Made by a program: the position numbers and the translations under genes
Shown: piece after piece, positions 5,927-39,764 of the stretch
How the letters are laid out: each line of letters begins with the position of its first letter
How positions within the stretch are numbered: the first letter of the stretch is position 1
From: a virus
Lineage: Duplodnaviria > Caudoviricetes
Virus record (IMG/VR): IMGVR_UViG_3300033407_000049
Location: 1-41,454 of that record
Direction: 5' to 3' (one strand)
DNA: 41,454 bases
The notes under the pieces: model-generated
What the model was told of the DNA's origin: nothing
Database searches by the model: none
Seen by the model: the letters and a program-made list of their open reading frames with translations, nothing else

Positions 5927-5931
5927 CACTT

Positions 5932-6528: not shown

Positions 6529-6609
6529 GATATAGTCTAGTCTGCAATGAGAGTTGCAGCAGCCGTGTTTACGGCGGGAGTGGATTAACGACCCACTTTG
6601 AATATAACG

Positions 6610-16902: not shown

Positions 16903-17511
16903 TTACCCGCAAGCCAGTATAGTAATGTCTGCCGAAGGATCAACTGAAGGGTAAGTATCTTTTGTTGAGTCAATCCATTCCTGCCATATCTCAAAATAGG
17001 TATATAAACCGTTTTCTAAAAATATTTCATAATTTGCGCCGGTAAATCGCGCATAATCGGTAGAGGTCAATGCACTAAATCGCATGTTAATTATAAGTTT
17101 CGGCTCTATTGTTAACGGTATCTGCAAATAATGTCGCTGTCTGTTGGACCATTGGTACACAACAATATTTTCTATTACTTCCGATACCCGGACATTTCGT
17201 GTAAATCCGTCACAAATAATGCCTCCACTGGTATTGTAAATAAGACAGCCGTATTCCAAATTTTTGATAGGAATTGCTGGTCCAGTAACCTGGTCCAGCA
17301 TTTTTACTGCACTCGCAGATGGTGGAGAAGACTCCCAATATTGTGGCCAGATTGCTTCTACGGGACAAGTGGGTTGACACGCACCGCACGAAACACAGAG
17401 TCCATCATCTATTACATAAGATGAGGAACCTTCTTCGATCGCATTATACGGACAATCACCAACACAAGCGCCGCAATTTATACAGTAATCTGGGGAAATA
17501 TAATAAGACAT
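16903..17511 (-). CDS. 2[4Fe-4S] ferredoxin domain fused to a tail-tip-associated domain
   Basis: Residues 1-56 carry CINCGACVGDCP and CVSCGACQPTCP; Ser/Pro linker; then YGCLIYNTSGGIICDG, resembling the motifs of the neighbouring gene. Confidence 0.85.
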   Translation of the reverse strand: MSYYISPDYCINCGACVGDCPYNAIEEGSSSYVIDDGLCVSCGACQPTCPVEAIWPQYWESSPPSASAVKMLDQVTGPAIPIKNLEYGCLIYNTSGGIICDGFTRNVRVSEVIENIVVYQWSNRQRHYLQIPLTIEPKLIINMRFSALTSTDYARFTGANYEIFLENGLYTYFEIWQEWIDSTKDTYPSVDPSADITILACG

Positions 17512-19040: not shown

Positions 19041-22000
19041 CTATTCGCCCAAACCGGAACCGAGTTTGCTGAGCAGATCGATATACAGTACGCCCCCGAC
19101 ACTGGAAGCGGCTGCGGTTCCAGCCGTACCGATATTCTGGAAAAGGCCCTTGGTGACCCCGGGAATCGAGTTGATGATGTTATCACCCACTCCGGTTGCC
19201 GAACCCAGCAAAAAGACGGACAGTGCGGTAAAGGGTGCATCCAGCAAGACATTCTTGATATGCTTGAGGACCCGGAGCTGGTACTTCGAGAAGAAGACCA
19301 GACCAATCGAATTGGCGTATTCTATGGATTTGTGTGTCGGTAAGTCAAAGTTTATAAACTTGTCGACTACTGTCGCCACCGCATCCCGATGTTCCATGCC
19401 CTTCTTCTGGGTGAGGTGTTTGTACATGACGTAACGCCCGACGTAGTCAGTCATCTTCACCGCATTGTTCATCATACGAAAACCTTCGGTATCCTGGGTC
19501 ATGAAAAGGACCCGGATGGCTTTCTCCATCTTAGCCGGCATCTTCTTCAGCAGCGTATCCAGGCCCTTATCCAGCCCGTAAGTATAGGGCGACTCGTTCT
19601 GGACGGTATCCACGTCATCGACAATGGAGGGCAGCAGTCCTGCCTCGATCATTGCCTTGGAAGGATTCCTTGCCAATTCGTCTTCCAGCCGAGCAATATT
19701 CCGATCCAGCACTTTGAGCTGCTGGGCTTTATCCACTGCATTGATGCTTTCCTTGGCCGCCAGGATGTTTCGCTGGATGGTGGCGGAAGTAAACTTCTGG
19801 TGCAACGACTGGTAGAGCAGGGCGCTGTTGATCGCTTCCCGAGAACCTTTCAGGATCTCATGGATCGGAACCCCGTGCGAGAGCAACAAGGCGATGTTGC
19901 TCAGGTAGTTGCCGTGGATAACTTTCAAATTACGCACCACGATATTACTCTTGGCCAGGCTGGTTAACTGGGTAAGGAATTCTTCACCTCGTTTGGCTCG
20001 TACCACAGCTCGACCGACTTGTTTATCTTTGCGCATCTGCGCCGAGTCGGTCGCCAGGTCATTCAACGAACTCTTGTAGAAAGGATTATCCCAGCCTAAA
20101 GCGAAGGTCAGCACCTCTTTGACCGAGCGTCCGATCAACTTCTGCTCGGAACTGTTCTTGCTGAAGACTTCCGTAATGCTGTATTTATTCTGTCCGAAAG
20201 CCAGGGTGATCATATCCCGACTGACCATCATCCCGTCGCGTCCCCAGACCGATTTGATCTGGGCGCGCATCTTGTCTGGCAGCCGGAAGTAGATTTCTCG
20301 CAGATCCTTATCTGTCGAGGTCGGAGAAATATCGACGAAGTCGAGAGGATACTTCTCAAACTGCGCATCGTAGAAATCCTTCAAGGCGGAGACGACTTCC
20401 TTGTTCACTACAGGAGTCATCTTCTTGTCCACGATCTGGCTGGCCATGGCGCCAAGGACCGCATCCACTTCGGAGAACTGTTGCAGGACGGTATCCTTGG
20501 TATGCTCGTTCATCATGTAACGGGTACCCAGCATTCGACCTTTGTCGTCGTAGTGCGGAATGACATAATTTTTGGCCCCGGTCGGAACATAAGGCTTGCG
20601 GGGGGTACTCTTGTACATCTTCTCCAGCGTGGCCTGCACAGTAGCCATCAAATGCTTCTCGTTCTGTTCAGCCTTAGCCGGCGCCGTGATAAAATTACCG
20701 ATCTGTTCCTGGACACGAAGAGCATCCGAACCCTTCTTGGTATTGGTGGTCAGCGAGGTAATCCCCGACTGAAGCGGATTGATCGTTCCGGTCAGCGACT
20801 TGAACATATAGATATCTTCTTTAACCAGATCGTTTGGATCCCTCTGAATGGGCGATTGCTCCATGGTGTAACCCATGCGGGTAAAGCGGGCCTGATCATG
20901 AATCGTGCCCTGCTCGTACTGCACTCGATCATTGAGGATCTGTTTGATATAGCCCTTCTGCATCTTGCCCGGCTGGTTATGAAAGGTTTCCTTGAGGGCT
21001 TCGGCTTTGAGCAGATTGTGCTGCACCAGGATATTTTCAAAACCCTGCCAGTTGTCCTGCATCAGCTCCACCAGGATCTGTCGATCCCGGGTCGGTACAT
21101 AGCGCAGCGAAGAAAGGGTCGCCAATTCATCGATAATGGTGATTGCCTTGGTGAGATGTTCTCCCTTCAAAGTCCCTGCGGTTTTCAAGCCATCCATCAC
21201 CGCAATGTTGTGGGCATTCAGCAACGGTACACCGTCGGCACGACGGGCGCCGTGGATCATGTAATAACCCAGATCGTCAGCAGCCTTTTCGAAGAAATGA
21301 CGGTGAGGACGCAAGGCCGGGTCGTTGAGCAGTTGCAGCATCAGGGCCGCAATCCGGTCTTCCCGGACCTGCTCACTACCTACTAGATCGATCAGCACAT
21401 CCTTGCCGGTACTATCCAGTAAAGAACTCAGATCGGTCTTCAGGCCGACCCTGGTGTAGACCTCTTTCTGTTTGGCCGTGACACCGGGCTTCAACCAAGA
21501 ATTAACCTCTGCCCGGATACCATCGGCTACCTCCACCTTGGCGGTATCGAGCACCCGCTTACGCCAGCCCAGCATTTCATGGAAGGTCTGTAGCCGAGGC
21601 GTCAAACCGCGTACCTCACCCATTACACTGGCCATAAAGCCCTCAGTACCATCCTTGTCGTTCATCCAGTTAAGCGCACGGCGGGTCTGGTAGGAGAGGT
21701 AGTTATCCGCTTCGTGTAGATCGCTGACCTTGAGGACGAGCTGACCAACCTTGCGGCTCTTGATGATCTTGGTGGCTGTCTCCTTGACCTTGTCGTCAAC
21801 TTTAATACCGAGTGCAGCCACTTTGTCAGACCCCTTGACGAACGTGGCGTAGATGCCCGATTTGGCCCTTACGTCGATCTCGGACAAAGCACGAACCAGA
21901 TTCTCCAGCTCGACATCCGCTTGGGTGGCATGCTGCTGTTTGTAGAACTGGGTATGGATAAAATCCATGATCTTGTTGAATAGATTAACCACCGACTGCT

Positions 22001-25000
22001 GGATGTTCTTTTCAAAGACACCGAACAAAGCGGTGCTCTGTTTCTTCGGCGGAATCTCCAGGGTCGCCAAGGCCCGCTTGAAGTTCTCGTTGGTTAAACC
22101 AAAGGCAAGGAATTCCGCGACACCTCGGTTGCTACCATCTGTGTTACGATCAGGGGCGAAGATATACGCCCAGCGTTCTTTGGCGGCCAGCACTTCGAAG
22201 GAATTGTTCGGATCGGTAATATCCGCTTCGGGATCGTTCATGAACACGCGGAAGGCGTTGGCGCCGTAGGCTGTTTCAAAAGTATCCCGGGCCAGCTCGT
22301 ACAGATTGGTAGCTTGTCCGCGCAGATAGGGCGACAGCTTGTAGCCACTTTGGATAATATGGTGGACGATCTCGTGAGCGTAGACTTCCCCTGCCGACAT
22401 TCGGATGCCGTGTCCGAGCATTCCCGACTTGGGTGCCGTGGAGAGTTGCTGGGTCTGCAACCAGATCTTCTTCTCTTCGCCGACATAGAGACCGTGGGTT
22501 TCCTGGTCGATCTTGTGCGTGCCGATAAAGAGCTGTATCGGTGTCATGACCCGGGCCACGATGTCGTTCATCACCCGGACCAGATGATTTTTATGATCGG
22601 GCGATACCGCCACACTGCCGTAACCGGCCTGGGCATCTTGCTGCAGAACCGTCTCCAGAACTTCGGCCACGTTCAGAGCATCAACCTTGGTGGTATTTGG
22701 ATAATCCGCTTCCAGAGGTTTCCCCGGGCTTTGCTGACTGGATCCCTGGGTGTCCGAATTCTGTTGTGCGGCCTCACCGTCCTTGCGGTCTTTCAGCCAG
22801 GCAGCGGTTGCCATGACGTTGTCCGCATCCACTGCTGTCACCGTATCTCGGTTGACACCCAGGACCGTATCAGCGGTTATGTCCACGCCTTCCGGATCGT
22901 AGCCAAAACCAGAGTTGGAGTATTGAGCCATCCTGGTAACGTAGGGCATCAGGGCCTTCTTGTTGTCCGTTACCTGCTGGGCAATATCCTTGGCTTGCTC
23001 ACCAATTTTTATAAGGGCGTCTTTGACTGCCTGTTGATAGCCAATCTTGGATAGCGCACTCTTGATTGCTCCAGGTAAGCCGGTCTTGTAATTACCGGAA
23101 GCACTGGCTTCTTGGGTAATACTTTTGATCTGTTTATCAAGGAAAATGTCCCGAGTTTCCGGATCGGGATTCTTACCGATAAAATGCGCTTCGGTGATTA
23201 GGTCTGCTGCCAGTTCCTTTTCAATGGCGCGTTCCTTGATCAAGGAGTCCAAGACCTCTTCCGACTTGATTCCCATTTCCTGGGCCATTTTACGCGCTGC
23301 CGTCAGAGTGCTTTCGTGCATCTTGACGATCTCTTCACCCATGCTGTAGCTGTTCATGATGCGAAAGAATTCTTGATTGGCTTGTTTTCCCACGATTCCG
23401 CTGTCAGTAATTCGGTGACTGAAACCATCATGGTTATTGAGGATATCGATATCCAGTCCCATCAGATGATTGGCTATCATTGAATCCAGCATGTGAATAA
23501 TACGGATAATCGGTGCCACACCGGGAGGATCCAGAAAAGGAATCCCTTCAGGGGTACCCTTGTGTTTCACCACAGTACCATTTTGATAGTTCTGCTCTAC
23601 TGCTGATTTCTTGGCGAAGAGTTTATCTTTGCCGGAAGACACCAACTGCAGGTAACTCGGATTGTCCTCGCGGTTAATCGGAGTCGGAATCTTCGGCATC
23701 AGCGGCTCCAGTTCCTCCAGGATCTGGGCCAGTTCCTTTTTGGTAAGCTGTTGCAGCTTGGGAGACTTGCGAAGGATTGCTTCATCCTTTGGATGGAGTT
23801 CTCCCTTCTGTACGCGCAATGCAGCCAATGCAGCCCGCACCTTACTCTCCAGTTTGGCTTCGACTTTGGCTTTTAGCATAGTGTTGTACATCACCACGGA
23901 AACATTGATCGCATCCAGTAAAGTCTTGCGGGCTTCGATGACCGGCGCATAAACGATATTGACTGCTTCACTCATCGCCTTGCCGTAGGTAGCATTGGCT
24001 GCGGTTTCAATCGCGGCAATTTCAAGATCCTTGAACTTGAACTTCAGCAGTTCATCGATGTTGAGAGCGTTCTCGGGTGTCAGATACTTTTTGATATCGT
24101 GAACTTCCTTGCCCAATAGGACGTTGATATTTTTCAGCAGCTTGTCCAGCCGCTTCAGTATTTCGCTATTGGTTGGCCGATCGGCGGGGCTCTCTTCCAG
24201 CAGGTAATCCTGGGCGATCTTTTCGATCTTGGCGTAAATGCCATCGTTGATCAGATCGACATCGGCAAAGAGTTTCGACTGGCTGAAGAGTCCGGCACCG
24301 AAAGTCGTCTGCATGGTGCGTGGTTTGGAGAGATTGCGGACGATCTTATTGATCACCCCACTCTCGTCAGAGAAAGAACCAAGGATTTCACCGATAGCGT
24401 CGGTGACGTCCAGTTGGTAATCGAGCCGATCTTTGACAAAGGAATCCTTCAGCAGCTCGATCTGTTTCGCCCATTCCTGACCCATGCGCTGGTAGGCGTC
24501 ATTGAGGAACCGGTTATCCGGGCCGATCAGGGTATCCAGGTTGGGTGGATTGCGGGAGACGCTGACACCGGCCATGGCCAGTGCCGCCAGTTTCTCCTGC
24601 ATAGCCTGGGCAATTGTTTGTCCCGGCATAGAACCTTTGTTTGACAGCAGCATCATCAACAGCATGGTGGGGCCGTTGCTGACGCCGTCGATCTCTTTGT
24701 AGAGATCGGTGGTGAATGGCTGGGCACTATCCTGGGCGTGGTTCAGATAGCGAGCATACTCCTGCAGTCCCTTAAAACCATGCAGCTTCATGCCACTGGC
24801 TTCCACTCCGACCGCGATGGCCTGCATCAGTTCGGTGGTCATCTCTTTCGTGCGGTCGAATTCCTGCAATGCTTCGATAGCCGGCAGCAGGGCATAGTGT
24901 TTCTTCTGGTCCTTGGCGGAGAGATTCTCCGGATGGTTGAACAGGTTATTCAGGGCTTCTAGTTGGCCCTCTACGCTATTGTACTTGGCTGACTCGATAT

Positions 25001-26675
25001 CCAGGGCTTGCGCTACGGCTTCAAAGAAAGCGCGTTCTGTGCCCTGTTTATCCACGAAGGAGACGATATCGTGTTCCGGAGCAAACGATACTTTCCAGCT
25101 CGACGGTGCGAAGAGATTGCGGATCACTTTGGAGTTCTGTGGATTGATATAGCCACGCATCAGCATCCGCATATTGCTGATAAAGTCACTGAGGATAAAG
25201 AAGGTATTCTTGTCTGCAGCCTTGGCCTGTTTCAGAAACGTCCGGACATGCTTGATGGTCCGGTCCACATCCTTGTTAATACTCTGGACGCTCTTTTCCC
25301 GGGTGAGGAGTTTGCCTGCCATGGACTCCTTACCAAAGATTGTGCCAAAGGCTTCCAGAGCCAGCGGATCGGCGGTCGCTTCATCGGCCACCAAGGCATC
25401 CATCGCTTCGAAGGCGCTCATGCTCGGCGTCGCGGAGGTCCACTCCGTATCCACGTAATTCTGGATATTTTTGTGCTGCTGCGGACTGATCGCTCCGACG
25501 GTACGACCGGCGCGCATGGTCTTGGGCAAGGGAATCTTGCCGAAGGAGTAACGCAGGGTCTGCGGTTCGTTGTTAAACAGCTTTTCAAAGATATCCGGCG
25601 CCAGGTTCAGTCGTTCCTCGATCTCTTCTACCAACGACAAAGGTTTGGCGTTGTCATTGGGATTGCGGCGCAATACCGTGGACGTGATGTACCCACTACC
25701 TTCGCGGGTTTTATGCACCGCATCGCTGTAGAACAGATCGTTATGGGTGACTGGTAGATATTCTTGCAGCTTCTTGAATGCCCCAATAAACATATCCTGG
25801 CGCTCAACCACGCCCATCTGTTCCAGTCCGGCAATCGCCATCAGACCCAGTGACATCTCCAGCCGGGACTTGCCCAGAGCATCGGCATTTTCCGTGGGAG
25901 TAATCGCCAGCCGTTCTAGTACGGTGCGCCCCAAAGCTTTCGCTAGAGACTCAGTATTCGTTCCCAGTCCCTCCAATAGTTCCAGGGTAGCCTTGGGTAT
26001 ATCCGAATCCTTGGGCCAGCCCAGCAGCTCACGCAGCATGTCCTGGGACTGCTCACCCATGGCCGTACGGGTCGCATCATTGCCCAGCCATTCGTAGACG
26101 GTCGCCGAGATCGCTTCTTTAACGGCCGGATCCAGATAGGCCGAAAGAGCTTTGGCATCCGCGTCATGTTCAGCGAAGTATTGGATCATATCCTCATGTC
26201 GGAAAGCCTTGGAAGAGCCTTCCTTGACCCGGAAGATCGCATCCAGCGCCACCGACATATCGGCATCGAAGACTTCATCGAAGTGGTTGAGGACATTGCG
26301 TTCTGCCGGATTCAAAACCATGAACCGGGCCGCTGCCTGGTAGATGCTGCCGGCCCGCTGCACCAGATTCTGCATCAGGAGCTTCAGACCGCCGACGGGT
26401 TTGAATTCGTTCAGCTCGTTGGACGGATCTTCCGGCCTGGAGGTAAACCGGGTAGCCGGTACAGCCTCCAGCAAAACCTGACGGTTCTGTTTATGCTGCT
26501 CCTTGACACCAGTACGGATTGCCTTCAACTGGGCGATGTGCGCTTCCATGGCGACCCGGGCCAGATCCCCTCGGCCCGCTTCCACAGCAGTTTTGACACT
26601 GGCCGGAAGACGGTCTTCGGTTCTTCCTTTGCCGTGGATATTCACGCAGCTTTGCAGCGAGCCTTTGGTAGCCAT
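19041..26675 (-). CDS. virion RNA polymerase (N4 gp50-like): polymerase plus C-terminal domains, 2544 aa
   Basis: MRMLMRGYINPQNSKVIR; motif A EIDGVSNGP; motif B RNLSKPRTMQTTFG; motif C NNHDGF; HEIVH motif; vRNAP-type C-terminus (MIEAGL…DYVGRYVMYKHL…FINFD). Confidence 0.92.
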   Translation of the reverse strand: MATKGSLQSCVNIHGKGRTEDRLPASVKTAVEAGRGDLARVAMEAHIAQLKAIRTGVKEQHKQNRQVLLEAVPATRFTSRPEDPSNELNEFKPVGGLKLLMQNLVQRAGSIYQAAARFMVLNPAERNVLNHFDEVFDADMSVALDAIFRVKEGSSKAFRHEDMIQYFAEHDADAKALSAYLDPAVKEAISATVYEWLGNDATRTAMGEQSQDMLRELLGWPKDSDIPKATLELLEGLGTNTESLAKALGRTVLERLAITPTENADALGKSRLEMSLGLMAIAGLEQMGVVERQDMFIGAFKKLQEYLPVTHNDLFYSDAVHKTREGSGYITSTVLRRNPNDNAKPLSLVEEIEERLNLAPDIFEKLFNNEPQTLRYSFGKIPLPKTMRAGRTVGAISPQQHKNIQNYVDTEWTSATPSMSAFEAMDALVADEATADPLALEAFGTIFGKESMAGKLLTREKSVQSINKDVDRTIKHVRTFLKQAKAADKNTFFILSDFISNMRMLMRGYINPQNSKVIRNLFAPSSWKVSFAPEHDIVSFVDKQGTERAFFEAVAQALDIESAKYNSVEGQLEALNNLFNHPENLSAKDQKKHYALLPAIEALQEFDRTKEMTTELMQAIAVGVEASGMKLHGFKGLQEYARYLNHAQDSAQPFTTDLYKEIDGVSNGPTMLLMMLLSNKGSMPGQTIAQAMQEKLAALAMAGVSVSRNPPNLDTLIGPDNRFLNDAYQRMGQEWAKQIELLKDSFVKDRLDYQLDVTDAIGEILGSFSDESGVINKIVRNLSKPRTMQTTFGAGLFSQSKLFADVDLINDGIYAKIEKIAQDYLLEESPADRPTNSEILKRLDKLLKNINVLLGKEVHDIKKYLTPENALNIDELLKFKFKDLEIAAIETAANATYGKAMSEAVNIVYAPVIEARKTLLDAINVSVVMYNTMLKAKVEAKLESKVRAALAALRVQKGELHPKDEAILRKSPKLQQLTKKELAQILEELEPLMPKIPTPINREDNPSYLQLVSSGKDKLFAKKSAVEQNYQNGTVVKHKGTPEGIPFLDPPGVAPIIRIIHMLDSMIANHLMGLDIDILNNHDGFSHRITDSGIVGKQANQEFFRIMNSYSMGEEIVKMHESTLTAARKMAQEMGIKSEEVLDSLIKERAIEKELAADLITEAHFIGKNPDPETRDIFLDKQIKSITQEASASGNYKTGLPGAIKSALSKIGYQQAVKDALIKIGEQAKDIAQQVTDNKKALMPYVTRMAQYSNSGFGYDPEGVDITADTVLGVNRDTVTAVDADNVMATAAWLKDRKDGEAAQQNSDTQGSSQQSPGKPLEADYPNTTKVDALNVAEVLETVLQQDAQAGYGSVAVSPDHKNHLVRVMNDIVARVMTPIQLFIGTHKIDQETHGLYVGEEKKIWLQTQQLSTAPKSGMLGHGIRMSAGEVYAHEIVHHIIQSGYKLSPYLRGQATNLYELARDTFETAYGANAFRVFMNDPEADITDPNNSFEVLAAKERWAYIFAPDRNTDGSNRGVAEFLAFGLTNENFKRALATLEIPPKKQSTALFGVFEKNIQQSVVNLFNKIMDFIHTQFYKQQHATQADVELENLVRALSEIDVRAKSGIYATFVKGSDKVAALGIKVDDKVKETATKIIKSRKVGQLVLKVSDLHEADNYLSYQTRRALNWMNDKDGTEGFMASVMGEVRGLTPRLQTFHEMLGWRKRVLDTAKVEVADGIRAEVNSWLKPGVTAKQKEVYTRVGLKTDLSSLLDSTGKDVLIDLVGSEQVREDRIAALMLQLLNDPALRPHRHFFEKAADDLGYYMIHGARRADGVPLLNAHNIAVMDGLKTAGTLKGEHLTKAITIIDELATLSSLRYVPTRDRQILVELMQDNWQGFENILVQHNLLKAEALKETFHNQPGKMQKGYIKQILNDRVQYEQGTIHDQARFTRMGYTMEQSPIQRDPNDLVKEDIYMFKSLTGTINPLQSGITSLTTNTKKGSDALRVQEQIGNFITAPAKAEQNEKHLMATVQATLEKMYKSTPRKPYVPTGAKNYVIPHYDDKGRMLGTRYMMNEHTKDTVLQQFSEVDAVLGAMASQIVDKKMTPVVNKEVVSALKDFYDAQFEKYPLDFVDISPTSTDKDLREIYFRLPDKMRAQIKSVWGRDGMMVSRDMITLAFGQNKYSITEVFSKNSSEQKLIGRSVKEVLTFALGWDNPFYKSSLNDLATDSAQMRKDKQVGRAVVRAKRGEEFLTQLTSLAKSNIVVRNLKVIHGNYLSNIALLLSHGVPIHEILKGSREAINSALLYQSLHQKFTSATIQRNILAAKESINAVDKAQQLKVLDRNIARLEDELARNPSKAMIEAGLLPSIVDDVDTVQNESPYTYGLDKGLDTLLKKMPAKMEKAIRVLFMTQDTEGFRMMNNAVKMTDYVGRYVMYKHLTQKKGMEHRDAVATVVDKFINFDLPTHKSIEYANSIGLVFFSKYQLRVLKHIKNVLLDAPFTALSVFLLGSATGVGDNIINSIPGVTKGLFQNIGTAGTAAASSVGGVLYIDLLSKLGSGLGE

Positions 26676-26688
26676 AGAAACGCCTTAC

Positions 26689-26970
26689 TTATTTAGAGGA
26701 GTTCAGGTTGATAACTGCCGCTTCCAGCGCCGCATTGATCATCGAGGTACCGATCTCAATCCCCGAAGATTTCATGTCCATCAAGATGAGATCAAAGGCT
26801 GCCTGGCGTTTGTCTTTACCGTCCGCTGCGGTCATGGTCTGGGCCACAATGGTTACCGCTCTAATGGCCGAACGGGCCAGGATACGTCCACTGTCCGAGA
26901 GAAGCTGTTTAACAAACGGCTGCAGAAAGATCCAGATATCGGAGAGGAAGAACTTCATTTTGTCCCACAT
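26689..26970 (-). CDS. LL-H-type holin-like protein, 93 aa
   Basis: AAGGAG RBS; GKDKRQAAF…INAALEAAVINL signature; close to the endolysin. Confidence 0.6.
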   Translation of the reverse strand: MWDKMKFFLSDIWIFLQPFVKQLLSDSGRILARSAIRAVTIVAQTMTAADGKDKRQAAFDLILMDMKSSGIEIGTSMINAALEAAVINLNSSK

Positions 26971-27071
26971 GGCTTGCTCCTTTTGGTTCGTTTGAAGAGT
27001 CTGGCCAACCAGTCGTCCCAGTTCACCTTGAAGCTCTTTTTGATTATGAGTTTATCCAGGGGCAATTTCAC
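26955..27071 (-). CDS. possible small basic peptide, 38 aa
   Basis: GTG at 27071; overlaps both neighbours and fills the gap; weak RBS. Confidence 0.3.
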   Translation of the reverse strand: MKLPLDKLIIKKSFKVNWDDWLARLFKRTKRSKPCGTK

Positions 27072-27345
27072 TCTTGCCCGCCTTCTCGATCTTGTGGCCG
27101 ATACCGATGCCTTGCAGTCCCGAGCAGACGCCGTAGATGCCGCCCATGAAGGTGGCGTAGGCCGTTTCAATCGGCACTTCTGGAAGACCCTGATCAGGAA
27201 AGGAGACGCTGATAAAGCCGACGAGTCCCGCACCCACAGCAACCAATCCAGCGATAATCTTGCCGGCTGCTCCGGCGTAAGTCTTTTTACCATTAAGCTT
27301 CCTGCCGATGAAAGCCAGGAACTGTTTTAACATAAAGTTCTTCAT
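27052..27345 (-). CDS. holin candidate, two TM helices, 97 aa
   Basis: ATG 27345 with GGAG RBS; LNGKKTY followed by two hydrophobic helices; directly downstream of the endolysin. Confidence 0.65.
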   Translation of the reverse strand: MKNFMLKQFLAFIGRKLNGKKTYAGAAGKIIAGLVAVGAGLVGFISVSFPDQGLPEVPIETAYATFMGGIYGVCSGLQGIGIGHKIEKAGKSEIAPG

Positions 27346-27355
27346 AAGTGCTCCG

Positions 27356-27946
27356 TCAGAAAGAAGTATCGAGACGCACCAGCCAGCCGGGAATATATCC
27401 AGGATCGAGCTGCTTGTAGTGCATGTAGGCTTCGCCACGTAACGCAGCATGGAGAGCCAAGGGGTAAGGACAGGTCCGGATGACTTCGCCGGTCAGAGGA
27501 CCAATTTTGCCGTCTACCAGTAACGGTTTACCGTGCATCATCTGGACAATGGCCTGGCGCCACTTGGCTCGGCGCAGTGGCAGGACTTCACCCAGACAAA
27601 CGACGTTGACCGCCCGTTGCAACATCTTTGCAGCACCGCCCACTCCGCAGTTCACCGCCAGGTCGTAGAAACGACAGGCCAGTTCAGGCGCTTTATCGGA
27701 GAAGCGATTGGCTCCAGAGGGTAGCCAGTAATCCCGAAAATAAATGGCTCGCGCATCATTGATGGTCAGGCTCTGGATATCCAGTAGTGGGTAGGCTTTG
27801 GCCGAAACACCGTACTGGGTTCCTTTAAGGGTCCCCTTGCCCACCTTACCTCCGGTCCAGTTGCCCGGATCGTTGGGATCCATCGACGTCTTGCCCTCGT
27901 GCCGCAAGGTGAAGGAGAATGCTTCTTCAAATACACCGAATTTCAT
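27356..27946 (-). CDS. endolysin, glycoside hydrolase family 108
   Basis: HEG…DPNDPGNWTGG…GTQYGVS…AIYFRDYW…DLAVNCG…LQRAV…VDGKIGPLT…GWLVR. Confidence 0.9.
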   Translation of the reverse strand: MKFGVFEEAFSFTLRHEGKTSMDPNDPGNWTGGKVGKGTLKGTQYGVSAKAYPLLDIQSLTINDARAIYFRDYWLPSGANRFSDKAPELACRFYDLAVNCGVGGAAKMLQRAVNVVCLGEVLPLRRAKWRQAIVQMMHGKPLLVDGKIGPLTGEVIRTCPYPLALHAALRGEAYMHYKQLDPGYIPGWLVRLDTSF

Positions 27947-28431
27947 AAAGGAGTCCCCGAAGGAATAGATTGCACGAGTTTCACTAAACCATGCAATATG
28001 GACCAGACTTGATTAGCCAAGAAGTAGACCATTGCCAGAATTACTGCTACCTGAACTTTGTCAAATTTTCCGTCTACATTGGGGGAAAGTGACTTACGCA
28101 ATTTGCATGATTCTGGGGAAGGGTGACCTACAAGATGCGTTTGTACTTTCTGATCCAGTTCCCTCATAACATTTTCCAGATGAGCAGCTTCTTCTCGCTG
28201 TATCTTGTATAGAGTATCGATATCCCGCTGATTGTCCGCCGTGCGATCCGCTAAAGCCACCAACCGTTCTTGTTGTTTGGCGATGTCGATCAAAGCACCA
28301 ACCATTCGCTTTTGGTCATATCTGAACTCTTGGACACTTTCGAGTAATTGATTCAGTATTGGACCTTTGTCGCAAGCATCAGCAGTCATAGAAAACCCTG
28401 TCGTTGTGTAGGAGAAAAGGGTGATCGTCAT
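27943..28431 (-). CDS. coiled-coil protein with C-terminal TM helix (lysis-cassette protein)
   Basis: ATGA overlaps at both ends; heptad-rich N-terminus, TM segment VQVAVILAMVYFLANQVWSIL. Confidence 0.65.
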   Translation of the reverse strand: MTITLFSYTTTGFSMTADACDKGPILNQLLESVQEFRYDQKRMVGALIDIAKQQERLVALADRTADNQRDIDTLYKIQREEAAHLENVMRELDQKVQTHLVGHPSPESCKLRKSLSPNVDGKFDKVQVAVILAMVYFLANQVWSILHGLVKLVQSIPSGTPL

Positions 28432-31352
28432 TTGCCATTGAAACAGTTGAGAATACTCTCTGCTTCAAGTATTTCTTGGGTCAGGGCGATCATAGCTTCG
28501 TTGTAGGTTTTCTCTACTTGCTGCCCGTCTATATCCGTAAACTGTATTTTCAAATATCCAGGATCAATCGGTTCAGCAGATATATCGCCGGAAACAGTAG
28601 CAGTATTGTCTGCAACAGTCGATTCTTTTATTTCCTTTGTAGGGCTTTTTGCATCCTCGGTTTTCTCGACAACCGGTGAGGTCTTGTTGGATTCCTCAGT
28701 CTCACTTTGGGTTACCGGCGTTACATCTTCTATCGACGAAGGCTCTACCGGCAAGGCCGCCGCTTCTTCGGTTGCCAGAGCTAGCTCTTCCTGAAAGACC
28801 CGGACTGCCTCAGGGCCGTATTTGACATTCAGTTGCTTTTCTTTTTGCCGCAGAATGGCGGGTGTCGTCTTTCCCTCGGCCAGCGTTGCGACGGCATTCC
28901 GGGCATACTTCCGAGTTTTACTTTCCACCACGGGATCTAGCGCAACAGGTTGGCTCACAGCCGGCGTAGTTGGTGCGACCGAGGTGTTGGCCTGCACCGG
29001 AGTCGTGCGAGCGGTCAGCAGGCTCTCAGCGAAGGTTACTTCCTTCTGCAGCGCGTCCGCTTCATTAGCAACCAGAGCTACCAGCTTTCCAGAGAATTTA
29101 TGGATCTTGTAGTTTTTCCCCTGGATCTTCAGATGGATCGTGGGACGCGGTTCGGTCTTCGGATCGAAGACGATCTGGGAAACCTTGTCAAAGGCTTCGG
29201 TGATCTGCTTCATCTTGTCCTGATGGGCATCGTGGAACTTGGCGAGTTCTTGGATCTGTTTCTTAGCACCCTCGACGTTATTGACCGCAGGATTAAGGAA
29301 ATTGGCGATCGCCTGCCGGTACGAGTCGATACCACGGAAATCCTTGTCGCCACGGTAAACATCTTCGTGAACGGCTTCAGCCGTTTTACCGTCGGTCACA
29401 GGACGCTGCTTGATCGCCGACTCGATCACCTGACGGGCGGCAACCGTTTCCTTTTTGGCTTGCAACAGAGTCCGTTCGACTTCGGGCAGATCGGGCTTCG
29501 CCAGGCGCTGATCCAGTTGCTGAATACTCAAACTGGCTTTACTGGATCCGTAGGTTTCGGTGGTATGGTTGATGACCTCTTCGGTGGTAGCAGACGCCAC
29601 ATCGAGGGGAGTCGTTTCCTTCTCGGTACTGACCTTGTTGTTCAGTTCACGGATGACCAGCAATTGCCGGGACATCTGTACCGCAACCTCGCCCTTTATT
29701 TCATGCTGCTTGACCAGGGCCGCCATCTGCGCTTTTTCCTGCAGAGTCTTCTGGTCACCCTTGTCCCTCAAGGCGACAATTTTCTCTTCGGTCGCCAGCC
29801 AGTCGGCTTTGACCGATGCATAGAGTTCTTCGGCCTTCACCGCCGCTTCGGGATTGTCGGCAAACTTCGCCAGCGAGGTGATGGCTTTTACCGGACTGTA
29901 ATTCTCGTGCACGGGATCGGACCATTCTTCGATCCGGGCATCGCCAAGTGCAACTTCGGCAACTTCTTTCTTGAAGCCATGCTCATTACGCGCTTCCTTC
30001 TGCGCCGCTGCTTTCTCGGTATCGGTCTTGATCGCTTCGACGGCTGCCTTGGATTCAGGTGTAGCGGTCAACAGCTTCTTGGTGAACTCACCGGTCTTGT
30101 TGGCGGCCAGCTTGGAACCAAAGGCCGCCGTGTTGATGCCGGCACCGATCGGGCCGGCTCCTACGCCACCGAGAGTTTCATAGATGAGATCCTCGGCTTT
30201 GATTTCTTCACCGATACCGCCAGTAGCGGCGGCTTCGGACAGGGGTTCACTGGCGACTTCTCCGGCATAGCTGGTTACGGCACTGCCGAGTTTCTTTTTG
30301 AAACTGCGTTCCGCCAACAGCTTGCTGGCCCCGGCGTTGATGAAGTCTTCGGTCAGGGTTTTAAGAGGGATTCCTTTTTCCGCTGCCCGCGCCGCGAGCA
30401 TCGCCCTGCCGACGTCGTCCACGCTGCGCATGGCCGCCTGGCGGGCTGCTCGCGTCGGGAGTGTAGCCAGCTTGGAGAAGAAGCCGCCCATGGCCACATC
30501 GGCCGCTCCCAGAATCCCGCCGTACTTCAGCGCATCGGCCTGGTACTCTTTGATCAGACTTGGATTCTGATCCATGAACATCTTGACGTTGGCCGGCGTG
30601 TAAGCGATCCCTCTCTCGTCCAGACCGCCCCGGATCTTTTCAACCATCTTGGCCGAACCGGCATCGGCTGCCTCGGCCGTGAACATGCCGGCCGCGGTAA
30701 TGAAAGGAGCAGCCGGAGCCGCCCATCCACCGGTCGCCGCGGTAGCGCCGGCTGCCACCAGACTTCCGGCCTTGGCGCCAGCACCCATGGAAGCCATAGA
30801 GCCAATCGACTGCGCCGCGACATCCAGCACCCCGCCGGGATTCTTGACGATATCCCCGACCAACTGCGCGGATGCCTTCACGCCCCCCAGGAAACCGCTC
30901 GCATCGGTGCGCTCGCCCCAAACCTTCATGTCGTGGGCGAGCTGCTTCATTTCGCGGGTGAGGGGTGCGGCATCTTCCTTGTTCAGATAATTGGCGACCT
31001 GAGTCGGGTAGTCATTGTCTACCTGGCCCACCAGATCGTCCACCATTGGGATGCGACTGGCGGCAGACAGCAACGAACGCTTGAGCGTGTCTTTCAGATT
31101 TAAGGCGAAGCCCTGGTTATCGGTGGTGGCCTGATCGGCTTTTCTTTGCTGATTGAGGGGATTATCGGGACTCTTGAGTTCCCGCTCCTCGATCAGTTGT
31201 TTATGGGCAGTCCGATACAATTCCTGAGTAGCCGCGTCCGCTTTCAGGAAAGACTCGTGCTTACCCATCGTCTGTTCAAAGTCCGCAGCGATCGTGGCTT
31301 CCCGATCGGCAGCCGGCGCTTTCGGAGTGGGTGTTTCAGTCTCGACTGCCAT
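28428..31352 (-). CDS. separately encoded N-terminal (ejection) region of the virion RNA polymerase, 974 aa
   Basis: Occupies the gp50 position right after the gp51 homologue; Gly/Ala-rich hydrophobic segment; ELAKFHDAHQDK resembles an N4 vRNAP N-domain motif; 974+2544=3518 aa, close to the ~3500 aa of N4 vRNAP. Confidence 0.75.
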   Translation of the reverse strand: MAVETETPTPKAPAADREATIAADFEQTMGKHESFLKADAATQELYRTAHKQLIEERELKSPDNPLNQQRKADQATTDNQGFALNLKDTLKRSLLSAASRIPMVDDLVGQVDNDYPTQVANYLNKEDAAPLTREMKQLAHDMKVWGERTDASGFLGGVKASAQLVGDIVKNPGGVLDVAAQSIGSMASMGAGAKAGSLVAAGATAATGGWAAPAAPFITAAGMFTAEAADAGSAKMVEKIRGGLDERGIAYTPANVKMFMDQNPSLIKEYQADALKYGGILGAADVAMGGFFSKLATLPTRAARQAAMRSVDDVGRAMLAARAAEKGIPLKTLTEDFINAGASKLLAERSFKKKLGSAVTSYAGEVASEPLSEAAATGGIGEEIKAEDLIYETLGGVGAGPIGAGINTAAFGSKLAANKTGEFTKKLLTATPESKAAVEAIKTDTEKAAAQKEARNEHGFKKEVAEVALGDARIEEWSDPVHENYSPVKAITSLAKFADNPEAAVKAEELYASVKADWLATEEKIVALRDKGDQKTLQEKAQMAALVKQHEIKGEVAVQMSRQLLVIRELNNKVSTEKETTPLDVASATTEEVINHTTETYGSSKASLSIQQLDQRLAKPDLPEVERTLLQAKKETVAARQVIESAIKQRPVTDGKTAEAVHEDVYRGDKDFRGIDSYRQAIANFLNPAVNNVEGAKKQIQELAKFHDAHQDKMKQITEAFDKVSQIVFDPKTEPRPTIHLKIQGKNYKIHKFSGKLVALVANEADALQKEVTFAESLLTARTTPVQANTSVAPTTPAVSQPVALDPVVESKTRKYARNAVATLAEGKTTPAILRQKEKQLNVKYGPEAVRVFQEELALATEEAAALPVEPSSIEDVTPVTQSETEESNKTSPVVEKTEDAKSPTKEIKESTVADNTATVSGDISAEPIDPGYLKIQFTDIDGQQVEKTYNEAMIALTQEILEAESILNCFNGK

Positions 31353-31366
31353 CCATTACCTCTTAA

Positions 31367-33415
31367 TTATTTTCGCTGAAGGTTCATGGACTTTGGCAAC
31401 TTATTGTTCTCGCTTCCCCTGTTTATCGCGTTTTTACGTTTATACCAATCGCGGATGTTTCCTATTAATTCCGCGCCACCGTTATCGGTAGAATCTTTCC
31501 ATGGCTCCCTACTGCCGGCAAACGCTGCCTGTTCTGCGAGCTGTGCGCGGAGTTTTTCTGCTTTAGCTTTTTGCGCATCCAACCGGGCCTTTTCCTCTGT
31601 TGCAGCTTTATCCCGCTGCGCCTTTAATTCTGCGGCCCTCGCCACGATTTCATCGGGAGTTGTTTCGCTCGCAGGTGTACCGGGAGATTTCTCTCCAGGG
31701 GCTTCCTTGGCTACCCTATTCTTGGCCAGCCATTTTGCCTCGGCTTCAATGCCTTCTTCCCAGGAAGCAAAAGTGACCTCTTTGCCCGTATCATCGTTAC
31801 CGACATTCCCGGGGTTGCGGGTACGCGCGCCTTTACCGGTTGTTCCAAAAGAGGAATCCTGCTGCATCATAGCCATCAGCAACTTAGGCTCTACATCGTA
31901 CTGTTTGGCGTATTTGCTCACCATGGCGCCGGTTATCGGACTGTTCGGGGCGGTAGCTTGAATATACTGGTCAATCTGCGCAACCGACTGCACAGGCGGC
32001 ATAGTATCAAAGAGTTCCTGCACTTTGTTTTCGTGGTTGGGGTCGGTTGCATGGCGGCTGATGTCTACCCCGGCAATGACGCGCGGATTCGCCGATGTTG
32101 GCGCGTTATCCCCGTACACTGTCTTACCGCGACCCAATCCCACCCCGTCAATGCCAGGACCGGCGCCACCAAAGTTCTCTTGCGCTCCGGCGTCTCGCAG
32201 TTCTTTACTCAGCCGCAGCAGTGTTTCTTCGGCAGCCTGTTGCGCGGCAGTAGCCTCCTGACGCGCGGACATAAGCTCCCCGGAAGTAGCGAAGCGATTC
32301 TTGGCGTTCTCCCCGAGTTCTTTGGCGCGTGCTTCAATGGCACGCATGGCGTCTGCCGAAATGTCGTTGCCCCAGGCCCGATCGCCCGGGTAGTGTTCGG
32401 AAAACGCCTGGTATAGGGCAGCACCGGCGTCCTTCGCCTCCACCTTACTATCCAGCATCTCCTGATGAATCCGTGCGACCTCTTTCGCATCACTCTTGGG
32501 TGCCCAGCCCTCCACCCAGTTGGTGACCTTTTTCCCGATGGCTTGCGGCACTGAGGCACCAAAGTCGTTACCCAGAACGGTTTTCACCTGGGCGTACGCA
32601 TCATCGCTAATGCCGGTTCGCTGCAAGGCAATGTCCTGCTGTTCCAACTCGGCCACTCGATCCAGTTTTAGCTGAATCTTGCGCTTTTCCACGCCCTCCT
32701 GCAAAGCCACATAATGCTTGTGTTTCTCTTGCTGATCGGGGGTCAGCAGCAATTGTTCTTCCAATTCTTTGGTCAATTTACGAGTTTCGGCAACCCGCTC
32801 TTCTTCCGGCAGTTCAGCTACCAAGGCTTTGATCGCCATCCGGCCTACAGCCGGTCCATTGAGTTGCACCTCTTCAAAAAGACTGTTGGTGCGGGCAGAA
32901 GATTCCCGTGTTTTCTGGATTTCGTAATCCTGGAATCGTGTCGCATTGGTAGCGGCAAAAGACTGATTTGCCGCAGAAACGAGCGATTCCGGTGCTCCCT
33001 GCTCACGCAGACGCTGTTCAAAAAGCTGGCGCTGCTTTAACGGATCAGCGGCTTCGGTCAGTGCTTCGTTGGAAGCCAGGTTGATTGCGTTGGTTTCCAA
33101 CTGCTGCTTCGTACCGGCGTAGGTTTCCGTCAGTTTATCCATATTGATCGTGTTGCCAAACTGCCGAGTGACGGCCGTTTTGTCCAACGGATCGACACCC
33201 AGTCCCTCTTTTTTGAGCTTGTTCTGCAGATACTCCTGCATGTTGAGGGTATTGGTTTCCTTGTAGGACTCCTCGGTCTGTTTAAAGAGTTCCTCGACGC
33301 CCTTGAAAGCTTCACCGATACTCCTGCCTACCGCTTCTTGACCGGCAACCAGGGACTTCATATCCGGCGAATCAAAGCCGCCATACTTTTGGTAAAACGC
33401 ACCAGTGTTTGCCAT
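31367..33415 (-). CDS. internal virion/ejection protein (N4 gp51 position) with lysozyme-like domain
   Basis: Helical, no Cys seen; YAKQYDVEPKLLMAMMQQDSSFG…NPGNVG…FASWEEGI; gene order. Confidence 0.75.
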   Translation of the reverse strand: MANTGAFYQKYGGFDSPDMKSLVAGQEAVGRSIGEAFKGVEELFKQTEESYKETNTLNMQEYLQNKLKKEGLGVDPLDKTAVTRQFGNTINMDKLTETYAGTKQQLETNAINLASNEALTEAADPLKQRQLFEQRLREQGAPESLVSAANQSFAATNATRFQDYEIQKTRESSARTNSLFEEVQLNGPAVGRMAIKALVAELPEEERVAETRKLTKELEEQLLLTPDQQEKHKHYVALQEGVEKRKIQLKLDRVAELEQQDIALQRTGISDDAYAQVKTVLGNDFGASVPQAIGKKVTNWVEGWAPKSDAKEVARIHQEMLDSKVEAKDAGAALYQAFSEHYPGDRAWGNDISADAMRAIEARAKELGENAKNRFATSGELMSARQEATAAQQAAEETLLRLSKELRDAGAQENFGGAGPGIDGVGLGRGKTVYGDNAPTSANPRVIAGVDISRHATDPNHENKVQELFDTMPPVQSVAQIDQYIQATAPNSPITGAMVSKYAKQYDVEPKLLMAMMQQDSSFGTTGKGARTRNPGNVGNDDTGKEVTFASWEEGIEAEAKWLAKNRVAKEAPGEKSPGTPASETTPDEIVARAAELKAQRDKAATEEKARLDAQKAKAEKLRAQLAEQAAFAGSREPWKDSTDNGGAELIGNIRDWYKRKNAINRGSENNKLPKSMNLQRK

Positions 33416-33427
33416 GATGGCTACTCC

Positions 33428-33991
33428 TTAAAGGGTTTCTTTTGCGCCCCAGCGAGCCATGGTATTGGCCACACCCTGTTGCATACCTTCGCTGCCTATC
33501 GCGTATCCTTGCGCCGACAGCCGACGTTCCTCCCGACTGGATAAGGCTTCGTTGGCACCCTTGGCCGCGTTGGTAAAGTCGGTCTTCATCATGTCCATCT
33601 GGTCGCTGTAGTAGCTCTTCATGAACTTGTTCATCTTGGATTGTTCCATGGCGTTATAAACATCCAGGCCCACCTTGGCTACTCCAAGACCGAACTCAGC
33701 GTTCTTCATCCAACCACCTTCAGCACCAGGTAGTTTGTCTTCGCCTATTTTGAGCTTGTTGTCTCCTAAAGAGAAATTGCTGTAATTGAGGGTAGGGTTG
33801 CCGAAGTCAGTACCCGGATGCGTCTGCATTCCAGGCAAGGCCATATTGTTTGAGACTGCCGGAGACTGATAATTCGCCGCATTCCAGCCACGCATATCGC
33901 CTACACCGATAGAGTTTATGCCGGGTGCAGCAAAATCTTCCGTCATTAAAGAGAAGCGCTTCTTTGGTGCGAAACCATTCGGAATGGCCAT
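33428..33991 (-). CDS. small internal virion protein (N4 gp52-like)
   Basis: Gly-rich with an amphipathic segment then coiled coil; gene order. Confidence 0.7.
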   Translation of the reverse strand: MAIPNGFAPKKRFSLMTEDFAAPGINSIGVGDMRGWNAANYQSPAVSNNMALPGMQTHPGTDFGNPTLNYSNFSLGDNKLKIGEDKLPGAEGGWMKNAEFGLGVAKVGLDVYNAMEQSKMNKFMKSYYSDQMDMMKTDFTNAAKGANEALSSREERRLSAQGYAIGSEGMQQGVANTMARWGAKETL

Positions 33992-36366: not shown

Positions 36367-37083
36367 TTACGTGATGTTGATACCTTGTTTGGCTTTCGCC
36401 ATGACGGTAGCAATTGCCGCATCGTCAATCCCCGCGGGGTTGGCCAGAGCACCATCGGTTGTCTGCCGTACCGACCAGGTATCCACCATGATCTTGGCCA
36501 GTTTCTGTTCGGCATCCCGATCGAAGCCATCGGTCTGCTTCTGGAAAAGGTTCTTCTGTTTGCCGATAACACCGGCTACGGTACCGGTCGCTACCAGGTC
36601 GCTGACCTGGGCTAGCTCGGTTTCCCGCTTCTGGTTGAGCAATCCTACCTCGGCATCGGTCTTGCTGGACAAGGAAGCCAGTTCACCAATCGCCCGGTTG
36701 GTGTCATTGTTGGCCCGGGTGGTATCATTGACTGTACGGGTGTTGTCGTTGACGGTGGCTGCCTGCATGGCGACGATCTCGGCCGTGGTCTTGCTGGTTT
36801 CGTTACCGGTTCTTGCCAGTTGCGCGACAATCTCCGCGTCGATCTTGCGGGTATTATCCTCTGTTTGCGCCGTCGAGTTGGCAATGTCGGCGGTGATCTT
36901 GGCGTGGCTATCGATCTGGCCCAGATCCCGATTGATGATCTGGTTCAGTTCGTTGGCCGTAGCTGCCCGCAGACGGTCGATTTCAGCCCGGACGCTACCC
37001 AGTACCGGCAAACGCCCCACCGGTGGCGTGTAGGTCAAGGACGGGTCATAATGAGACGATGTGCTGAGTGGTTCGGTAGCCAT
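36367..37083 (-). CDS. structural protein, C-terminal part of N4 gp54-like
   Basis: GVIGKQKNLFQKQTDGFDRDAEQKLAKIMVDTWSVR motif; own AGGAG RBS. Confidence 0.75.
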   Translation of the reverse strand: MATEPLSTSSHYDPSLTYTPPVGRLPVLGSVRAEIDRLRAATANELNQIINRDLGQIDSHAKITADIANSTAQTEDNTRKIDAEIVAQLARTGNETSKTTAEIVAMQAATVNDNTRTVNDTTRANNDTNRAIGELASLSSKTDAEVGLLNQKRETELAQVSDLVATGTVAGVIGKQKNLFQKQTDGFDRDAEQKLAKIMVDTWSVRQTTDGALANPAGIDDAAIATVMAKAKQGINIT

Positions 37084-37097
37084 GGAAGCCTCTCCTA

Positions 37098-37556
37098 TTA
37101 ACCGATCGGCGGGATCGGGGTAATTTCCTGGGGAATGAAATTAAACCCAAGGCCAGCCGGAATACAGTCGTCCGTCTTGGTCAGCTCGGTCACCGTCTGC
37201 TGCCGAATCAACCCGATCTGGGCGTTGATCTGGTGAACCTGCTGCTCGTTCAGCAAAAACTGGGTCGCCGTTTGCAGGACAGCCGACAGCGCCCCCAGAT
37301 ACACCGTGCTGTACTCGTGCCCGGTAATCCGTTGGGACTGGAACTCTTCCTGGAGATGGAGTTTGACTGTCTTCATCAATTGATCAAAGACGCCAGAACC
37401 GTCCAACTCGGTGGTTGTTAGCGTCTTGAGAGGTGTAGCCAGGACTTTCTTGTCCGTGCTGCCTACGCCGTTCTCCTGATTGGTCAAATCCAGGGTGGTG
37501 GGTTTCCAGCCACTGGGACTGAGATCTACTGCCTGCAAACGTATCGACATAACCAT
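37098..37556 (-). CDS. structural protein, N-terminal part of N4 gp54-like
   Basis: LTT…GSGVFDQLMKTVKLHLQEEFQSQRITGHEYSTVY…QFLL motif. Confidence 0.75.
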   Translation of the reverse strand: MVMSIRLQAVDLSPSGWKPTTLDLTNQENGVGSTDKKVLATPLKTLTTTELDGSGVFDQLMKTVKLHLQEEFQSQRITGHEYSTVYLGALSAVLQTATQFLLNEQQVHQINAQIGLIRQQTVTELTKTDDCIPAGLGFNFIPQEITPIPPIG

Positions 37557-38333: not shown

Positions 38334-39764
38334 TTATACCCGGGCGACAGTCTTCACTACTGCGATACGCTCGCTGCGCAATTTCATAAAGCCGTAGTAC
38401 CACTTGATCGACATGAATCCGGTTTCGCCGTAAGGATCGTTGGCGTAGGATTCCGGTGATTCGGGCTTGGCGTGCTTGATGTTGAATTTGACCGAGTTGC
38501 CGCTGGTCTGGAAACCGATGGTGGTGAACGAAGCATCTCCAACCACCAGCATCGGAAAGACGTCGTACTTACCATTGGTCACGCGGTAACCGGCATTAGT
38601 GCCTTCCGCCGCACCAGCCCCGGCATAGTGCATCATCTCGGGGACCACGATCAAACGGAACTGGCCAACAGTACCAATCTCACCATTGATCGGCGAACCG
38701 GCATCCGCATAATGGGCTACCGAAATGAACGCCTGATTACCGAAATAATCTTCCATACGTTCCACGGTCTGGGTCAGTTCGGAACCAATGAACATTGCCC
38801 GCCCGGCGCGCAGTACCCGGGTATCCACCATACGGGAACCGGAAATAACCTTGGTGGTTTTCGGACAGCGGTTGTTGTCGAGTTCAACGGACAAACGAGC
38901 GAAGTCGCCGTAGGTGACTTCGGTAACCGCACCGGTGGCACCCGTCAGTTCCGCGTCTTCAGTGGCAGCACCGGAGAAATAGACGACGCCGGCTGCGTTC
39001 AACAGGTCGATCTGCAGCAGATCCTCGGTGATCTCGTTGGCGCCGAAGATCATCTCGCGGTTGATGTGCATTTCGAGTTCAGCATCAGAATCAAAGTCCA
39101 CAGATTCTTTGGTGTACTCGTCGAAGAAACCGTACTTCTCCAGGGTACCTTCCAGCTCGACGCGGGTAAAGCCCACCCGGTTAACCCGACCACCGGTTTC
39201 GGAGAGCACCGGCAGTTTACCAACGATGGTACCGACGTCCTTGCTGGAACCGTACAGGTTACCGTAACCAGGTAGCACAGTGGCACCCAGATTCAACGCC
39301 ACAGCGGTGTCTTTCTTGGTGGCATTGAGATACTTGGCAGTGAGCGGACCCACCAGGGTCAAGGTAGCAAAACCAGCACCGGCCGAATCATCAGCCCCGG
39401 CAGTCGCTACCAGGGTAGCACCGACGTTATCGTTGATTGCGGTGGCAGCAGCGGCCTTGGAAGCATTGGCCCGGGTCATGATACGAGCCGGCCAGGTGAT
39501 GAAGAACTCGGTGGTGGCGATGGTGATGCCGGAAGCATCAATACCCTGGTCATTGATGTTGGCCTCATCCAACATCGGAACATAGTGATAACGCTTGATT
39601 TTTTTCCCCATGTTCTTCGGCATGGCAGTGACGTCAGCCAGAGGACCGAAGTACATCTCTTTCTTGGCTTCGATCAGGGCCTGTTTAATAAAGTGGTCAA
39701 CAACAATCTGACCACCAATATCAGAGGGCGAACCTCCTGCGGGATCTGCATATTCTCTTGCCAT
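38334..39764 (-). CDS. major capsid protein (N4 gp56-like), 476 aa
   Basis: DQGIDASG, GNLYGSSKD, LSETGGRVNRVGFTR, DPYGETGFMSIKWYYG. Confidence 0.97.
   Translation of the reverse strand: MAREYADPAGGSPSDIGGQIVVDHFIKQALIEAKKEMYFGPLADVTAMPKNMGKKIKRYHYVPMLDEANINDQGIDASGITIATTEFFITWPARIMTRANASKAAAATAINDNVGATLVATAGADDSAGAGFATLTLVGPLTAKYLNATKKDTAVALNLGATVLPGYGNLYGSSKDVGTIVGKLPVLSETGGRVNRVGFTRVELEGTLEKYGFFDEYTKESVDFDSDAELEMHINREMIFGANEITEDLLQIDLLNAAGVVYFSGAATEDAELTGATGAVTEVTYGDFARLSVELDNNRCPKTTKVISGSRMVDTRVLRAGRAMFIGSELTQTVERMEDYFGNQAFISVAHYADAGSPINGEIGTVGQFRLIVVPEMMHYAGAGAAEGTNAGYRVTNGKYDVFPMLVVGDASFTTIGFQTSGNSVKFNIKHAKPESPESYANDPYGETGFMSIKWYYGFMKLRSERIAVVKTVARV

Follow-up and report, generated by a model that had tools for sequence, protein, structure and literature searches.

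The question raised by this locus is why the virion RNA polymerase (vRNAP) of an N4-like phage should be made as two proteins, and why the only cysteine of each should lie at the terminus turned towards its partner. The window, i.e. the whole stretch of DNA analysed here, is IMG/VR record IMGVR_UViG_3300033407_000049 (41,454 nt; virus, Caudoviricetes; record 55% complete). Two of its open reading frames (ORFs), hereafter the N-half and the polymerase half, correspond to the N-terminal domain (NTD) and to the polymerase with the C-terminal domain (CTD) of N4 gp50:

28428..31352, minus strand: N-half of the vRNAP, 974 residues, mostly helical, counterpart of the N4 gp50 NTD (phrog_2206; blastp and hidden Markov model (HMM) comparison with fused vRNAPs; AlphaFold model)
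19041..26675, minus strand: polymerase plus CTD half of the vRNAP, 2544 residues (phrog_2206; N4 gp50 chains in the Protein Data Bank (PDB))
28443-28445, minus strand: codon TGT of Cys970, the sole Cys of the N-half (ORF translation)
26646-26648, minus strand: codon TGC of Cys10, the sole Cys of the polymerase half (ORF translation)

The two proteins match the vRNAP family phrog_2206 in order, the N-half over profile positions 198-893 (E 1e-17) and the polymerase half with E 0 and its best stretch at 2253-3376. The former aligns with the N-terminal part of fused vRNAPs (e.g. that of locus L010, E 7e-38) and the latter matches gp50 chains of N4 in the PDB (E 1e-28); taken together, the two ORFs are homologous to gp50 over its NTD, polymerase and CTD. 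The single-subunit RNAP motifs A, B and C are present, and D663, R780, K784 and D1083 of the polymerase half are invariant in 21/21 proteins. These findings confirm that the ORFs are the N-terminal domain and the polymerase plus CTD of an N4-type vRNAP, split at the known flexible linker; packing in the virion, ejection and early-gene transcription would be expected of it from homology and gene position. As a separate observation, the motif-B tyrosine is replaced by Phe at residue 792 of the polymerase half (24300-24302, minus strand), as also in 4/21 close homologs and 35/139 pattern matches; in T7 RNAP the Y639F change relaxes sugar discrimination.

A reading made from the sequence alone had reported, by eye, one Cys at residue 970 of the N-half and one at residue 10 of the polymerase half, and had stated that the N4 enzyme has none. 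The computed count agrees, with no internal Cys in either half, and N4 gp50 does contain 0 Cys. On the replication side of the window, seven genes with 2483 residues in all encode 29 Cys, so that about 41 would be expected in the 3518 residues of both halves. With one Cys each, the chance of placement in the last five and the first ten residues is about 2e-5 (5/974 x 10/2544).

The same reading had proposed a survey of terminal cysteines in split homologs, and this turned out in its favour. Single-protein queries against viral contigs matched nothing, and alignment queries did match. All nine N-half homologs retrieved (35-55% identity) have a Cys 2-6 residues from the C-terminus, which is the only one in eight of them; the ninth has a second Cys six residues earlier, both lying within the last 13. 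Among the 36 polymerase homologs of the first set, 18 are of split length, and 17 of these have exactly one Cys, at position 5-11, while the eighteenth (P0028, locus L004) gains Cys5 if an upstream in-frame ATG is used. The other 18 are longer and have either no Cys (13) or one internal Cys (5). The pooled set of 171 polymerase proteins was classed by the number of residues ahead of the polymerase. With at least 600, i.e. in the fused forms, none of 118 has a Cys near the junction, 95 have no Cys whatever, and the total is 31 Cys in 402,810 residues. With fewer than 600 (53 proteins), a Cys falls within residues 1-13 in 37, of which 35 have no further Cys. The feature, a sole facing Cys pair on a split vRNAP, is thereby confirmed as real and conserved.

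Facing single cysteines on both halves were found on four further contigs, in which the halves are separated by 7165 nt (L003, whose N-half is only partly inside the locus), 2924 nt (L004), 6657 nt (L005/L013) and 2848 nt (L006), with different tail- or lysis-type genes within the gap. They recur across two contigs of assembly G006; L012, L041 and P0005, being near-copies, do not count as independent, and five fused loci (L007-L011) served as controls. The window being a single metagenomic contig, chance or an assembly or gene-calling artefact might be suspected. We give this next to no weight: four other contigs show this layout with other genes between the halves, which excludes it, the gap holds intact lysis genes, and the catalytic residues are intact. 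Readthrough or frameshifting between the halves was considered and is ruled out by gaps of 1.75-7.2 kb holding other genes.

Where the chain is broken, and what stands on either side of the break, was examined in predicted structures. In N4 a low-complexity linker, residues 907-1006, connects the lipid-binding NTD to the polymerase (PMC13434306; papers are cited throughout for their accessible text). The corresponding segments of the window are:

28563..28754, minus strand: low-confidence (pLDDT <50), likely disordered P/T/E-rich linker, N-half residues 867-930, counterpart of the N4 linker 907-1006
28431..28565, minus strand: tail module, N-half residues 930-974, modelled as a beta-hairpin followed by an amphipathic helix of 24 residues that bears Cys970 near its end (AlphaFold model)
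26460..26675, minus strand: head module, polymerase-half residues 1-72, predicted to form three amphipathic helices, the first bearing Cys10 (model of residues 1-300)

The tail model has strands at 935-939 and 945-949 and a helix at 950-973 that holds Cys970; the head model has helices at 4-13, 25-32 and 36-70, all ahead of the polymerase. Fused relatives match both halves and pass from the linker directly into the polymerase, and profiles of head and tail found no relic at the junction in any of the 118 fused forms (E 0.12 and 0.026 at best, both off the junction). Therefore, the break is at the linker and the split forms carry two added modules. The tail module is not demonstrable outside the window's clade, since its profile returned only nine members of that clade among longer proteins, no significant PDB match and no usable Atlas match; this is weak evidence, as this word-based search also missed several known members. 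Foldseek with the model of polymerase-half residues 1-300 gave N4 RNAP as top rows, but with E 0.16 and 0.26. The N-half homolog P0011 has a GGDEF domain (PF00990) within the linker region, where several others have inserts of 100-300 residues.

The tail Cys is invariant in 15/15 aligned tails and the head Cys in 24/24 aligned heads, TGT and TGC codons both occurring at both sites among split forms. Each Cys sits on a conserved hydrophobic face of its helix, His46 of the head module is kept in 18/21, and net charge is acidic in 13/15 tails and basic in 16/24 heads. Across the split forms the position is less strict, the head Cys lying anywhere from residue 4 to residue 12 and the tail Cys 2-10 residues before the C-terminus. 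This bears on the idea that protein splicing or thioester ligation via the cysteines restores a true peptide bond, which would explain two conserved junction cysteines and give back the one-piece protein. Protein splicing needs fixed terminal residues, however, and Pfam searches, inteins included, gave no match to either half, so that we regard this as a very improbable explanation; a split intein in particular was rejected because there is no Hint domain match and the terminal Cys positions are not fixed.

What, then, could the cysteines be for? It is likely, judging from sequence and models, that the facing helical modules dock together and would be locked in the particle by a Cys970-Cys10 disulfide. 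We also think it probable, with some confidence, that such a helical clasp with its disulfide would take over from the lost peptide link while the proteins are packaged and ejected. The halves would be made separately and pair through their helix faces in the reducing cytoplasm; the disulfide would form later, after lysis or in the periplasm, and would replace the peptide link while the proteins thread through the tail, and after arrival in the cytoplasm it would probably be reduced. With all other cysteines excluded, no bond but Cys970-Cys10 could form. The conserved hydrophobic helix faces could hold the halves together even after reduction. A structural precedent exists in cyanophage A4 (A-4L), where cryo-EM shows the C-terminal helix of gp27 docked into a gp26 cleft and a disulfide between Cys1715 and Cys5 (PMC12002296); neither protein has any other Cys.

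Each Cys might instead pair with further copies of the same protein, or with a virion protein other than the opposite half. Several vRNAP copies are present per virion (about 4 in N4, as quoted in PMC11445570), and the window's gp53-like protein has 3 Cys and its capsid protein 1. On the other hand, both cysteines appear and disappear together with the split, the gp51- and gp52-like proteins are Cys-free, and the A4 bond joins two different proteins; bonding of this kind is accordingly improbable.

Several points weigh against the disulfide clasp. Virions assemble in the reducing cytoplasm, and no glutaredoxin or thioredoxin was found in five records. Air oxidation may be scarce, the host being possibly anaerobic: a relative of 55% identity (G006, loci L034 and L041 on two contigs) belongs to an assembly titled as a Sphaerochaeta metagenome-assembled genome (binning unchecked). 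Sphaerochaeta is an anaerobic genus, and the assembly may be a host hint or a case of mis-binning. The cultured schitovirus hosts in the survey that accompanies Pseudomonas phage DEV are alpha-, beta- and gamma-proteobacterial only (PMC11445570). In DEV it was gp71-C that co-migrated with the tunnel protein gp72, while gp71-N did not (PMC11445570); the N-half may therefore not be needed for the polymerase half to reach the tunnel. Among the proteins with fewer than 600 residues ahead of the polymerase, 16/53 have no Cys among residues 1-13; these are P0028 (a start miscall), nine that start inside the polymerase profile and six that start 16-369 residues upstream of it, which look truncated and could be real exceptions. 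Lastly, A4 is a precedent by analogy only, since HMM comparison found no sequence likeness between the window's modules and those of A4 (nor those of crAss001). Standing beside these points, a search for Erv1 gave no match, its controls being equally silent, and in a model figure for N4 it is the NTD that binds the tunnel protein (PMC13434306).

The main rival is a non-covalent helix bundle in which the Cys serve for buried packing or metal bridging, any disulfide being an effect of lysis or purification. The placement of both cysteines on hydrophobic faces, the retention of head His46, the failure to find an oxidase and a possibly anaerobic host would all suit it. It does not readily explain why the residue is invariantly Cys, never Ala, Ser or Val, in proteins that otherwise exclude Cys, why the tail has no conserved second ligand, or why groups without detectable sequence likeness use the same residue; we hold it to be unlikely, although it deserves more attention than the other alternatives.

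The sequence-only reading had further linked the pair to a ferredoxin among the tail genes and to redox-controlled entry. A gene for 202 residues that lies two genes downstream from the polymerase half (16903-17511, minus strand) does have a 2x[4Fe-4S] ferredoxin domain (residues 1-56), followed by about 145 residues of unknown family, and one might imagine that it and the Cys pair gate entry or turn the polymerase on. This part of the earlier proposal did not hold: PF00037 was found in 0/5 records of split relatives, three of them at least 90% complete, whereas 14/14 controls were positive, and among the N4-like loci scanned the ferredoxin motif is confined to the window's DNA. Moreover, autoinhibition of the N4 vRNAP runs through the CTD (PMC13434306), which in the window remains fused to the polymerase. 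A redox switch thus seems to us highly doubtful, and the ferredoxin gene is possibly a recent pick-up from an anaerobic host.

How often the vRNAP has changed between the two states was addressed with trees. In a FastTree tree of 94 rows, built from polymerase plus CTD without the head columns, 24 split proteins including that of the window form one clade and the remaining split proteins are scattered among fused ones. On a quick tree of 36 rows the split/fused state changes 6 times, at least 4 of the changes being forced by the starred branches. A single clade was rejected both for all 16 split rows (p-AU 6e-34) and for the 12 nearer ones (p-AU 9e-5, a group defined after the tree was seen). 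The heads of six other split proteins are homologous to those of the window's clade (hhalign 94%), so that an old split with later re-fusions fits as well as repeated splits. One protein of 1707 residues (P0090) has NTD and polymerase fused and a Cys-Cys at 1704-1705 just before its end; since it ends just after these residues, it was likely split at the polymerase/CTD boundary with the same mark.

As to the surroundings, the halves are not adjacent, 1752 nt with four genes lying between them, and two further Cys-free genes stand upstream:

27943..28431, minus strand: gene of 162 residues with hydrophobic C-terminus, likely lysis-related (role from position; a similar gene at the same place in L012 and L041)
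27356..27946, minus strand: GH108 endolysin (PF05838, E 2e-14; phrog_315)
27052..27345, minus strand: hydrophobic protein of about 97 residues in the lysis block (start set by likeness to 98-residue homologs in L012 and L041)
26689..26970, minus strand: LLH-type holin (PF09682, E 3e-8; phrog_6918)
31367..33991, minus strand: two Cys-free genes, 682 and 187 residues, positional counterparts of the N4 ejection proteins gp51 and gp52 (identity from N4 gene order)

Pfam and phrog searches gave no family match for the 162-residue and the 97-residue gene, and promoter and terminator matches between the halves were at chance level only. The gp51/gp52-like pair has a weak glucosaminidase match, below cut-off. 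At the genome level the window is N4-like, to judge from its structural and replication set in N4-like order (phrogs 1357, 2120, 2130, 2050, 2220, 2346, 2135, 2139 and 743).

Some observations on other genes may be recorded. The counterpart of N4 gp54 (phrog_2050) is also split (36367-37083 and 37098-37556, minus strand), likewise in L012-L014, and has no facing Cys pair, being a split that lacks the mark. The major capsid protein (38334-39764, minus strand) has 476 residues against 401 in N4 (475-476 in the relatives L012 and L014). On the plus strand, the match of the DNA polymerase (456-3678) to phrog_17 falls into at least two pieces; the Cys-rich ORF of 220 residues (1418-2080) that lies between them is likely an endonuclease insertion. 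A group I intron match (RF00028, at gathering score) lies at 5644-5947 (plus strand), within 5432-8568, and after it, just upstream of the primase match, comes a Cys-rich ORF (5875-6528) that is likely HNH.

The N4 structure paper leaves open how a polymerase of 380 kDa gets through a tail of 35 angstrom, and in which order (PMC13434306). That this natural split always comes with a Cys pair suggests that chain continuity, from the membrane-anchoring domain to the polymerase, is required. More tentatively, and with the balance somewhat against us, it can be speculated that podoviruses generally eject their internal proteins as one covalent thread, a portable helix-plus-Cys clasp replacing the peptide bond at splits: it would work across genes up to 7 kb apart, Cys exclusion would keep the bond unique, and cytoplasmic reduction would free the polymerase from its membrane anchor. 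If true, the single A4 disulfide would become a general rule across N4-like, epsilon15-like and crAss-like phages, and the pair of about 45 and 72 residues would be a compact, reducible protein clasp. The requirement for chain continuity is made testable by two point changes. Genome surveys that demand a 3,500-residue vRNAP gene can miss the window's clade.

Two groups of known systems come closest to the locus. N4 gp50 and DEV gp71 share with it the homology over NTD, polymerase and CTD, the N4-like gene order and the catalytic motifs, the best identity of the window's halves to cultured phages being about 25%. They differ in being one chain of about 3,500 residues, whereas the window has 974 plus 2544 residues from genes 1.75 kb apart, with one conserved Cys per half, each on an added module, instead of the 0 Cys of gp50. 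The Cys content of gp71 homologs is 0.00075%, with Cys suppression across 191 cultured genomes (PMC11445570). Neither a split N4-type vRNAP nor junction cysteines were found in the literature, subscription papers and supplements being largely outside the search: the accessible text of PMC4819975, PMC10172136, PMC10747016, PMC5746245, PMC4496689, PMC10654107 and PMC10136315 describes no such split, that of PMC13434306 mentions neither cysteine nor disulfide, and that of PMC11445570 mentions no split.

The second group shares the facing cysteines. The suggestion in the sequence-only reading that consecutive ejection proteins of other podoviruses have similar terminal pairs proved sound for A4 and for epsilon15 with four relatives, and applies to crAss001 as well, the pattern occurring in 3/8 of the reference phages first examined (A4, epsilon15, crAss001). 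It was not found in N4 gp50-52, T7 gp15/16, RIO-1 gp36-38, BPP-1 bbp10-12 or F116 gp59/60; in F116, gp59 does have cysteines at its C-terminus, but none stands at the head of gp60. In the epsilon15-like phages examined (epsilon15, phiV10, Tyrion, BUCT711 and RpY1, chosen from 22 records, three being close relatives), the only Cys of gp16 lies in 5/5 at 4-5 residues before its C-terminus, and gp17 has no Cys but Cys5; unlike in the window, these genes are adjacent and encode no polymerase. Their gp16 tail gives a weak hhalign match to the tail of the window's clade (probability 32%, E 5e-4), against 0.2% for the heads. In crAss001 the pattern surrounds the virion RNAP, with Cys2339 of 2341 in gp47, Cys5 and Cys2404 of 2412 in gp50 and Cys5 in gp49, although here the cargo consists of three proteins and gp50 has one internal Cys, unlike the window. 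The crAss001 virion RNAP has an unrelated, multisubunit-type polymerase fold. PMC13434306 agrees on this point. In A4, the sole Cys of gp27 (1715 of 1717) and the sole Cys5 of gp26 show the facing-end pattern of the window, and the C-terminal Cys-bearing helix seen in the structure of gp27 has its like in the predicted helix 950-973 of the N-half; the A4 proteins are not polymerase and their genes are adjacent, whereas those of the window are polymerase and lie apart. The A4 paper treats the disulfide as a stabilising detail of one structure and states no general rule in its accessible text (PMC12002296). A4 gp27-gp26 is the sole published tail-to-head disulfide precedent that we found, and what is new in the window is an N4-type clade whose split halves lie kilobases apart.

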